IMG/VR virus record: IMGVR_UViG_2874968258_000006
DNA: 41,592 nt
From: a virus
Lineage: Duplodnaviria > Heunggongvirae > Uroviricota > Caudoviricetes
Direction: 5' to 3' (one strand)
Shown one piece after another: positions 18,401 through 21,400 of the stretch (position 1 is its first letter; every line of letters starts with the position of its first letter). Made by a program: the position numbers.

Positions 18401-21400
18401 CTGGTGGCTGACCGTTTCAGAAATACGTTTAACGCCATTAACAACGGAGAACAGTATCCTGTGGATGAGCTGATCAGCATAGATTCTCGTTGTCCGTTGC
18501 TTGAAAAGCTGAAACTGGAACTGACAACACCTCATCGTGATTTCGACCGTAACGGACGTGTGATGGTCGAAAGTAAAAAAGACCTCGCAAAACGCGAGAT
18601 ACCGTCACCAAACGTTGCTGATGCATTCATTATGGCCTTCGCGCCAATCGATACATCGCTGGATATCTGGGAACAGCTGGGGAGACAGGCCTGATGGCAC
18701 GAAACAAACAAGCCCTGCGGCGAACTGTGCAGGCCACAGCTGATGGTTATGAGAATTTTATTGCCCGCGTAGGGATGCAGACACCTAACCAGCACTCAGC
18801 ATCCACCTACCGGGCTAATTTCACCAGTCGTAACCGCATGCTGGTGGAATGGTCCTATCGTTCATCCTAGATCATCGGCGAAGCAGTCGATGCTATCCCG
18901 GATGATATGACCCGCAAAGGCATTCGCATCACTTCGGAAATTGATGCAAAAGATCGTGGCATTCTCGAATCACAACTGGATGAGTTGCAAATCTGGGATG
19001 CGCTGAATGACGTGCTGAAATGGTCGCGCCTCTACGGCGGCGCGGTGGGTTTCATCATGATTGAGGGGTAGGCACCAATGACCCCGCTGCGACCCGAAAC
19101 CATCGGTAAGGGCAAGTTTAAGGGGATTCTCCCGCTCGACCGCTGGATGGTCGACCCGGCACTGACCCGCCGCATTAAAGATATGGGGCCGGACCTGGGT
19201 AAACCTGAGTTTTACGATGTGGTGACCACAGCAACGGGAATTCCTGCCTGGCGCATTCATCACAGTCGCCTGATTCGCTTTGATGGCGTCACGTTGCCAT
19301 TTCAGCAGAAGATGACCGAGAACGAATGGGGAATGTCGGTTGTAGAGCGTATCTGGGATCGTCTTACCGCGTTCGACAGCGCTACTGTCGGCGCGGCGCA
19401 GCTGGTCTACAAGGCGCATTTGCGTACCTACAGCGTGGAGAAGCTACGCGAGCTTATCGCACTTGGTGGTCCTGCGTATGAAGCGTTGCTGAAGAATATC
19501 GACCTGATTCGACAGTTCCAGAGTAATGAAGGCATGACGCTCATGGACTCGCGGGATAAGTTTGAAACCCATCAGTACAGCTTCAGTGGTCTGGATGACA
19601 TCCTTTCGCAGTTTGTAGAACAGATTAGTGGCGCTGTTGGTATCCCACTGGTGCGGTTGTTCGGACAGTCCCCGAAAGGATTTTCTACCGGTGATGCAGA
19701 CCTTGCCAACTATTACGATCGCATCAGTTCGTTGCAGGAGAGGCGTTTACGTCTTCCGGTGCGGCGGATACTGGACATCATGCATCGTTCGGAACTTGGC
19801 AAGCCGCTGCCGGACGATTTCACGTTTGAGTTTAACCCGCTCTGGCAAATGTCTGATGTCGATCGCTCAACGGTGGCGTTAAACACCACCAACGCAATCA
19901 GTACGGCGCTGGGTGATGGTCTGATGACACTGAAAGCCGCTATGACTGATTTGCGAGAAAATTCTGACGTAACCGGCATCGGGGCATCCATTACCGACGA
20001 GGACATCGAGAATGCCGAAGATGAAGCGCCGCCCGGCATCGGCGAACCTGATGACGAACCGCAGGAGCCGTCAGGCGGAAATCCGGTATCGAACCAGCCT
20101 ACGCAGGATAGCGAGGGCGGTCGGAGACATCGTAAATGGTCGCTACGATGGTTCAAATGACAGTATCACGGAAATTATTGCGGCGCTGGAGCGTTACAGT
20201 GAAATCATCACCCCCTGGGCGACAAAGGTCGCGGAAAACTTTACTGCGGACCTAACCCGGCAGAACGAGAAAGTTTGGCGGCAACACAGCAAGAACATCA
20301 GTCGCGAGCTCCGCAATCTTGTGGAAAGCGCTCCTGTGGGCCAGGTGATGCAATCCATCATCGCCGAACAGGTCAAGTACATCAAATCTCTGCCTCTCGA
20401 GGCCGCAGACAGGGTGTACGACATCCAGAACAAAGCGATAGAGGCTGTTGTCACCGGTGGTCGGGCGGAGCAGTTTGCTAAAGAGATTGCATCTACCGGC
20501 GATGTTGCTAAGTCTAGGGCCGATCTGATTGCCCGAACGGAACTGGGAAGAGCAACGGGCGCGCTGGATATGGCCCGAGCGATAGCTATTGGCTCGGATG
20601 GTTATATTTGGCGTACAGCCGATGATGGCGATGTCCGAGATTCCCACGATCACATGAAAGGTAAATTCGTCCGCTGGGATTCACCTCCAACTTTGGACGG
20701 CATGACCGGCCACGCGGGCGAGCTGCCAAACTGCCGCTGCTATAAAGAGATCGTGTTTGTTCGCGTTCCATTCGCAATGAAAAGGGCAGCATAACCCATG
20801 AAATACTTTTTTGAGACCAGGCTCGGGGAAACCCGATACCGCCTGGCTGACGGCTCGTTGCTGTGCAAAGACGTGCCGATAGGACGAACAGGTAAGCAGC
20901 TCTATGGTGCTGATGACCTGCCAAAACTGAAACCCGATAAGTTCGGTGAAATAGTCGTCACGCGTTCTCCTGAGCAGGTATTCCATCCGGCCACGCTTGC
21001 CTCATTCGAAGGGATGAGCATCACGATCCTGCATCCTGAAGATGAAAACGGGAATGTGCGGCTGGTAAATCCCGAGAACTGGAAAGAGCTTGCTGTCGGG
21101 CACCTCCAGAATGTCCGGCGCGGGACGGGTGAGCAGTCTGATTTGATGCTGGCTGACCTTATCGTCAAAGACGAAAGCGCCATTCAGCTTATCGAAGATG
21201 GCCTGCGCGAAGTGTCGTGCGGCTATGACGCGGAGTACGAGCAGACCGAGCCAGGTAAAGCCGAGCAGGTCGATATTACCGGAAACCATGTGGCTCTTGT
21301 CCCTAAAGGCAGAGCCGGAAATCGTTGTGCAATTGGAGACAGAGACACAATGGCAAATCAAAAGAAAAACTGGTGGAACCGCATGCGTGCGGCCATCAAG

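Follow-up and report, generated by a model that had tools for sequence, protein, structure and literature searches.

The question raised by this locus is whether a phage portal gene that carries two in-frame stop codons is a dead gene, a gene misread in assembly, or one that is still translated in spite of them. The gene lies at 18694-20160 in the IMG/VR virus record IMGVR_UViG_2874968258_000006, a stretch of 41,592 nucleotides assigned to the Caudoviricetes (hereafter the window, to which all positions refer unless another sequence is named). A first-pass annotation, made from the sequence alone, had described a portal frame of 488 codons that is interrupted by TAG at 18868 and at 19069 but otherwise intact, had expected a sense codon one transition away from each stop, and had read this as recent inactivation unless the assembly was in error or the strain carried an amber suppressor. 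In the analysis reported here the best explanation overall, and one that we hold to be very probably correct, is that the gene is a recent and fixed portal pseudogene with two nonsense mutations, in a decaying, ipaH-linked prophage of Shigella sonnei.

The portal frame and its ancestral codons

The frame opens with the ATG at 18694, which overlaps the stop codon of the large terminase gene (terL) in the sequence TGATG at 18692-18696, and it closes with the TGA at 20158-20160. Translation of the whole interval gives exactly two internal stops, and both are TAG. With these stops masked, the product matches the Pfam family PF06381 (Phage_portal_3) with a score of 348.1 bits, the cut-off being 33.8 (E=6e-104), and the ancestral protein scores 255 bits with TIGR01555, the HI1409 family, for which the threshold is 196. 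The match to PHROG 146, 'portal protein', has an E value of 1e-174 and that to the portal of cyanophage Pam3 in the PDB (8hds) an E value of 2e-37; further matches to PDB entries named as portals are 9jlf, 9l01, 9b41 and 8fvh. Homologues were found by tblastn in 1964 phage records, many of them annotated as portal. The position of the gene is also typical of a portal, being directly 3' of terL and followed by the genes for a Mu F-like head morphogenesis protein, a DUF2213 protein and a gp24 cement protein. The coding sequence is not uninterrupted over its full length, with TAG at codons 59 and 126, and the gene is a member of the portal family by descent, yet a pseudogene. That a frame of 488 codons should otherwise stay open, at 99.8% DNA identity to an intact gene, would be far beyond chance. 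The frame and the two stops that had been described at the outset, as well as the absence of any further internal stop, are borne out by the sequence, its translation and these family and structure matches.

Comparison with intact relatives proved informative in establishing what the stops replaced. Megablast against complete Escherichia coli genomes located the portal gene in 382 of them, in three at 99.8% identity. As the intact reference we used the locus of E. coli FDAARGOS_944 (NZ_CP065613.1; L001 in our set), whose portal protein is WP_000113499.1 and whose prophage ends at ipaHb. Six outgroups served to polarise the changes, namely L001, VL40, E423, A34, phage vB_EcoM-606R2 and Shigella dysenteriae Sd197. 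The window gene differs from that of L001 at three bases only, G>A at 18869, C>T at 19069 and C>T at 19616. Wherever the site is present, all six outgroups have TGG, CAG and GCA at the three codons concerned, and TAG59, TAG126 and GTA308 are derived for this reason. In a protein alignment of eight orthologues, which also takes in those of SEN34, Omnitron, Erwinia Y2, Vibrio K168 and Klebsiella FZ14 (the last three at 27-28% identity), tryptophan occupies position 59 in all eight, down to 27% identity, and glutamine occupies position 126 in seven.

The sense codons foreseen in the first-pass annotation, TGG (Trp) at 18868 and CAG (Gln) at 19069, are exactly those of L001 and the outgroups, and the comparison with portal orthologues that it had proposed yields a sense codon at the stop sites in every orthologue examined that retains the site. 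Its view that the inactivation was recent has also held, since only three nucleotides separate the gene from an intact copy and the two stops are derived. The third change, which replaces Ala308 by Val (19616 C>T), was absent from it. The differences from L001 comprise three non-synonymous and no synonymous changes, which would fit relaxed selection, though such counts are too small for a test.

Distribution of the alleles in Shigella sonnei

By its sequence, the window can be identified as part of a Shigella sonnei chromosome. Exact look-up of the 360-amino-acid (aa) open reading frame (ORF) left downstream of the second stop returned 2576 blocks of the assembly collection, with the source names 'Shigella sonnei' and Q3Z426_SHISS. 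Each of the pieces of 58, 54 and 360 aa into which the gene is divided occurs on at least 1000 contigs. TAG126 and GTA308 are present in all eight loci taken from independent S. sonnei assemblies, including 53G (HE616528.1), CP022457.1 and CP044191.1, and 7083 bp of the CP044191.1 locus match the window without a difference. TAG59 was read directly in seven of the eight, the other (L009) being out of register through a 1-bp indel. Look-up of the intact protein, which was not exhaustive, returned other assemblies and none of these S. sonnei assemblies. Both stops are real and appear to be fixed in S. sonnei, and the two nonsense single-nucleotide changes together with A308V provide clean markers specific to it.

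It could be argued that the TAG codons are artefacts of sequencing or assembly and that the true gene is intact. Rare short contigs with other allele combinations speak for such a view. It is nevertheless so improbable as to be negligible, and we regard assembly error as excluded, because the same alleles recur in eight independent assemblies, closed chromosomes from different projects among them, and the fragment products are each found on at least 1000 contigs. The reservation about the assembly that accompanied the original description can be closed on the same grounds.

The deviant contigs themselves (L023-L027) are short-read Logan contigs from five runs of the Sequence Read Archive, and were found by exact look-ups of hypothetical intermediate products. 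TGG59 is combined with TAG126 in L023 and L025, and TAG59 with CAG126 and GCA308 in L027; L026 encodes a full-length portal with V308 alone, and L024 ends one base before 19069. The marker positions that vary among them are 18395-18401, 18768, 18869, 19069, 19616, 20946 and 21087. Four of the five carry a 7-bp deletion in terL, which in the closed genomes L028 and L032 accompanies an intact portal and belongs to a different prophage copy. With this deletion, and with one contig ending a base short of a variant site, they look chimeric, and most likely they are chimeric assemblies of samples that hold two near-identical copies. They may also be real recombinants, or true intermediates in which Q126amber arose first. 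The order of the two nonsense mutations was sought in these contigs as well, and had to be given up since every combination of markers occurs in them and they are most likely chimeric.

The portal fragments are already in public annotation, and the locus is a case of ordinary Shigella genome decay. Many S. sonnei records, and the databases derived from them, list it as separate 'bacteriophage protein' coding sequences of 58, 54 and 360 aa. It should be annotated as a single portal pseudogene with two internal stops and not as three coding sequences; the importance of the finding beyond annotation is little. We found no paper on this specific portal gene, only general accounts of decay in Shigella and of in-frame stops.

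Two further observations concern the naming of the portal family. Some NCBI records call N-terminal fragments of the family 'anti-CBASS protein Acb1 family protein' (for example P0050, P0054, P0061 and P0067). This name looks like annotation carry-over, as Pfam, PHROGs and solved structures all say portal. In addition, phrog_28295 (54 positions) matches portal residues 72-125, which is exactly the middle fragment of 54 aa in S. sonnei, and phrog_12751 (283 positions) matches residues 203-488. This suggests that fragment ORFs of broken prophages have seeded separate PHROG families of 'unknown function'.

Suppression, recoding and the state of the prophage

A gene with two TAG codons could remain functional if UAG were suppressed by a natural amber suppressor or passed by programmed readthrough. 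In the proposal of Belinky et al. (PMC7918605), in-frame stops of prokaryotic genes frequently undergo readthrough for a limited period, which favours this possibility, as does the intact state of the remaining head module. A search with ARAGORN found no amber-suppressor transfer RNA (tRNA; anticodon CUA) in the window or in the fetched loci, to which the scan was confined, and this scope leaves the possibility some room. The sole tRNA of the window has the anticodon CAT and is truncated by the insertion sequence (IS) IS911, and the array in the intact relative L001 consists of tRNAs with the anticodons CAT, TCT, TGT and TCC, with no CTA. TAG is moreover the normal terminator of ydaV, of the lysis gene and of the terS-like gene in the same prophage. 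A single suppressor would have to supply acceptable residues both at an invariant tryptophan and at a glutamine, the three lineage-specific changes in the portal are all non-synonymous and carry no signal of purifying selection, and a portal would be without a role where the capsid protein and the tail are lacking. Taken together these points make a functional gene highly improbable. Suppression is also irrelevant to restoration of the phage because the capsid gene is interrupted and the tail genes are absent from the window. The two reservations in the first-pass annotation, about the assembly and about a suppressor, are thereby largely closed.

A different possibility is that TAG is a sense codon in the late genes of this element, as in code-15 phages. 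In these phages TAG is reassigned to glutamine, and one of the two sites is glutamine in the orthologues. Borges et al. (bioRxiv 10.1101/2021.08.26.457843) present stop-codon recoding as widespread in phages and as a possible means of regulating late and lytic genes. However, translations and tblastn with the L001 proteins found no in-frame TAG in the other late genes of the window, so that the two in the portal are the only ones of the whole late region, and one of these falls at the invariant tryptophan. In relatives of 99.8% identity the two codons are CAG and TGG. With three neighbouring genes ending in TAG, and with no suppressor tRNA in the sequences scanned, we rejected recoding, the probability of which is practically nil.

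There is a very slim chance that S. sonnei keeps the block of terminase, portal, scaffold and cement genes as a domesticated module, in which readthrough or an undetected suppressor provides a low level of full-length portal, or that the rare contigs described above are gene-conversion recombinants between near-identical prophage copies which could revert the nonsense codons.

The state of the prophage around the portal pseudogene was determined from the alignment with L001, from tblastn with every protein of the L001 prophage and from inspection of the junctions. The element is dismantled (Table 1). Synteny between L001 and the window ends at 22543, and about 14.8 kb of L001 (23851-38653 of that locus), with the capsid, neck, sheath, tube, tape-measure, baseplate, spike and tail-fibre-assembly genes, is absent from the window. 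After the break at IS1 there are chromosomal genes and more IS copies, and the right end of the prophage then follows at 36800. Nonsense mutations and the expansion of IS1, IS2, IS600 and IS911 are documented modes of genome degradation in Shigella (Hawkey et al. 2020, PMC7373316).

Table 1. Coordinates of the portal pseudogene, its altered codons and the surviving or inserted elements of the surrounding prophage.
Feature	Position	Strand	Remarks
IS600 in early-region hypothetical gene	6480..7743	-	3-bp GTA duplication; named from RefSeq annotation
IS911 in 3' acceptor end of first prophage tRNA	11468..12716	-	other three tRNAs of the array lost
IS2 in 3' end of holin gene	13463..14793	-	5-bp GTAAG target duplication
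Large terminase gene (terL)	17291..18694	+	intact ORF, 467 aa, 99.6% identity, no stops; stop overlaps portal start
Portal pseudogene, Phage_portal_3 / DUF1073 / HI1409 family	18694..20160	+	488 codons plus stop, two internal ambers
Amber codon 59	18868..18870	+	TGG (Trp) to TAG through G>A at 18869
Amber codon 126	19069..19071	+	CAG (Gln) to TAG through C>T at 19069
Residual ORF of 360 codons, 3' of second amber	19078..20160	+	internal ATG, with GAGGGG 10 nt upstream
Codon 308, GTA (Val)	19615..19617	+	from GCA (Ala) through C>T at 19616; third S. sonnei-specific portal change
Mu F-like head morphogenesis, DUF2213 and gp24 cement genes	20051..22528	+	all intact ORFs; last surviving head genes
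IS1 ending the head module	22544..23318		after nt 4 of major capsid gene; junction GAATGA/GGTGATGCTGCC; InsA and DDE_Tnp_IS1 Pfam matches
Detached right end of prophage: N-terminal remnant of tail fibre, DUF4376 gene, ipaH	36800..40534		ipaH at 38771-40534, minus strand

Several other features of the element were recorded. At the prophage break, two inverted IS1 copies (22544-23318 and 25904-26676) flank a segment of 2.6 kb (23319-25903) with ORFs of 333 and 338 aa, an arrangement like that of a composite transposon. The first prophage tRNA, at 11397-11470 (anticodon CAT; tRNA-Ile in relatives), has had its acceptor end changed from GGGCCACCA to GGG/TGAAG through IS911, and the remaining three tRNAs of the array in the intact relative, Arg(TCT), Thr(TGT) and Gly(TCC), have no counterpart in the window. 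A replication-region gene at 4317-5100, which encodes 262 aa in L001, is split across three frames, implying at least two frameshifts. Copies or fragments of IS600 lie at 1-2754, 6480-7743 and 35549-36812, two of them being adjacent at the left end of the window with partial repeats at 2463-2754. The window lacks the L001 genes for RecE, Gam, AAA ATPase and YdaE, and the early region proximal to the integrase was probably lost through an IS600-mediated rearrangement.

The interval 14937-15580, which holds the lysozyme (rrrD) and lysis genes, has eight differences from L001 and VL40 in 650 bp, seven of them altering the protein, and six of these eight recur in another copy of Shigella type, L024. 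This interval looks like an alternative allele or a mosaic segment and not like decay specific to S. sonnei. Further to the right, at 30507-32841, there is an integrase-like gene with 43-47% identity to the integrase of the L001 prophage, broken by a second IS911 (30821-32069) and adjoined by an excisionase-like ORF. It may be a remnant of a different integrative element.

Mutational spectrum, selection and known counterparts

If the gene is a pseudogene, the way in which it became one can be considered from the few changes it has undergone. Between 17183 and 22543, polarisation by the outgroups places four substitutions on the S. sonnei lineage (17316, 18869, 19069 and 19616), and all are G:C>A:T. 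Of all the G:C>A:T transitions possible in the ancestral portal gene, which were listed in full, 6.2% yield a stop. TAG makes up 57% of these nonsense outcomes (17 from CAG and 11 from TGG), against 17 TGA and 4 TAA, and the chance that both stops are TAG, given two nonsense transitions, is 0.33. It is thus unremarkable, and to be expected, that both are TAG; the codon has no special meaning at the two sites because G:C>A:T transitions act on CAG and TGG codons. No shared sequence context of a deaminase-like kind was apparent by eye among the four changes.

Some of the data do weigh against an explanation by neutral decay. Under a uniform neutral model of G:C>A:T change, two nonsense mutations among three portal substitutions have P~0.011, and two among the four substitutions of the head block have a P of roughly 0.02 by hand calculation; this excess could be a hint of selection for inactivation. 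The terS-like, terL, Mu F-like, DUF2213 and gp24 genes, in addition, remain intact ORFs. We do not take the nonsense excess as evidence of selection, since the test is post hoc, the gene having been chosen for its two stops in a species with many decaying genes. As for the other head genes, their intact state is expected because only four substitutions have occurred in 5.4 kb, which is too little time.

An adaptive inactivation would suppose that nonsense mutations were favoured because they stopped abortive assembly or packaging, or a toxic product, while the prophage was kept for its ipaH cargo. The nonsense excess among the few lineage-specific changes (P~0.01-0.02) is in keeping with this idea, and so is the destruction of the same gene by IS1, independently, in S. 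dysenteriae. However, the statistic has the post hoc character just described, one stop suffices and the second lacks a selective rationale, and loss of the portal gives the cell no protection from lysis. The insertions and deletions across the whole element indicate general decay, and the IS1 truncation in Sd197 takes out the whole flank and not the portal specifically. We therefore consider adaptive inactivation very unlikely.

The course of neutral decay that we favour is as follows. The prophage is the remnant of an ipaH-linked element of myovirus type, with Salmonella phage SEN34 and Escherichia phage vB_EcoM-606R2 among its relatives. Three G:C>A:T transitions struck its portal gene on the S. 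sonnei branch, giving W59amber, Q126amber and A308V. The expected products are an N-terminal peptide of 58 residues and perhaps, through reinitiation, a little of the 54-aa and 360-aa fragments. None of these would be able to form a dodecameric portal, and the full-length portal protein would not be made. The portal mutations are best seen as neutral decay in an element whose function had already been lost or was being lost, and their fixation would be due to drift rather than selection. The locus illustrates neatly the fate of Shigella prophages that deliver ipaH effectors: they are retained for this cargo, and their morphogenesis genes meanwhile decay by IS insertion, by IS-mediated deletion and by AT-biased point mutation, as has happened separately in S. 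sonnei and in S. dysenteriae.

The portal copy of S. dysenteriae Sd197 (ABB62211.1, Q32EP4_SHIDS) is of particular interest as it too is listed as a C-terminal fragment of 360 aa, in an IS-ridden remnant of the same type of prophage. In this copy (CP000034.1, L012 9211-11083) IS1 replaces the 5' quarter of the gene, that is, everything upstream of approximately codon 105. Unlike the S. sonnei gene, it has CAG at codon 126, alanine at codon 308 and four private missense changes. A truncation inherited from a common ancestor of the two species was considered and rejected, as Sd197 retains CAG126 and is cut by IS1. The portal gene of the same prophage has therefore been inactivated independently in two Shigella lineages. 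The DUF2213 and cement genes downstream of the Sd197 portal are split as well.

The lesions also have a counterpart in the laboratory. CAG>TAG and TGG>TAG by G:C>A:T are among the changes made by mutagenesis with hydroxylamine, ethyl methanesulfonate or nitrosoguanidine, and the amber mutants in phage morphogenesis genes known from classical laboratory work carry the same lesions. Unlike such ambers, the portal alleles have become fixed in S. sonnei of natural, clinical provenance, sampled by many projects, and the prophage that carries them cannot be propagated; nothing in them points to a laboratory origin.

The closest intact counterparts are the prophages that encode WP_000113499.1, for example in FDAARGOS_944, VL40 and E. 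coli 53638, which are ipaH-linked elements of E. coli, enteroinvasive E. coli and Shigella. They have the portal in the same placement between terL and the Mu F-like gene, and ipaH at the right end of the prophage. In these, complete capsid and tail modules follow the portal, whereas in the window copy, which bears the two ambers and A308V, the module is ended by IS1. The same order of head genes is found in Salmonella phage SEN34 (Brunovirus), whose portal gene has 85% DNA identity, and in Escherichia phages vB_EcoM-606R2, 689R2, 611R5 and 683R1, with 98%; unlike the window copy, the portals of SEN34 and of the vB_EcoM phages are uninterrupted, in phages deposited as complete genomes. At a greater distance, the ancestral protein is homologous to the Pam3 portal (8hds) over residues 15-413 (E=2e-37) and to gp19 of Pseudomonas phage E217 (8fvh) over residues 58-367 (E=1e-14). 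By sequence, these two portals belong to the same portal fold family as the ancestral protein of the S. sonnei pseudogene, as distant relatives only.

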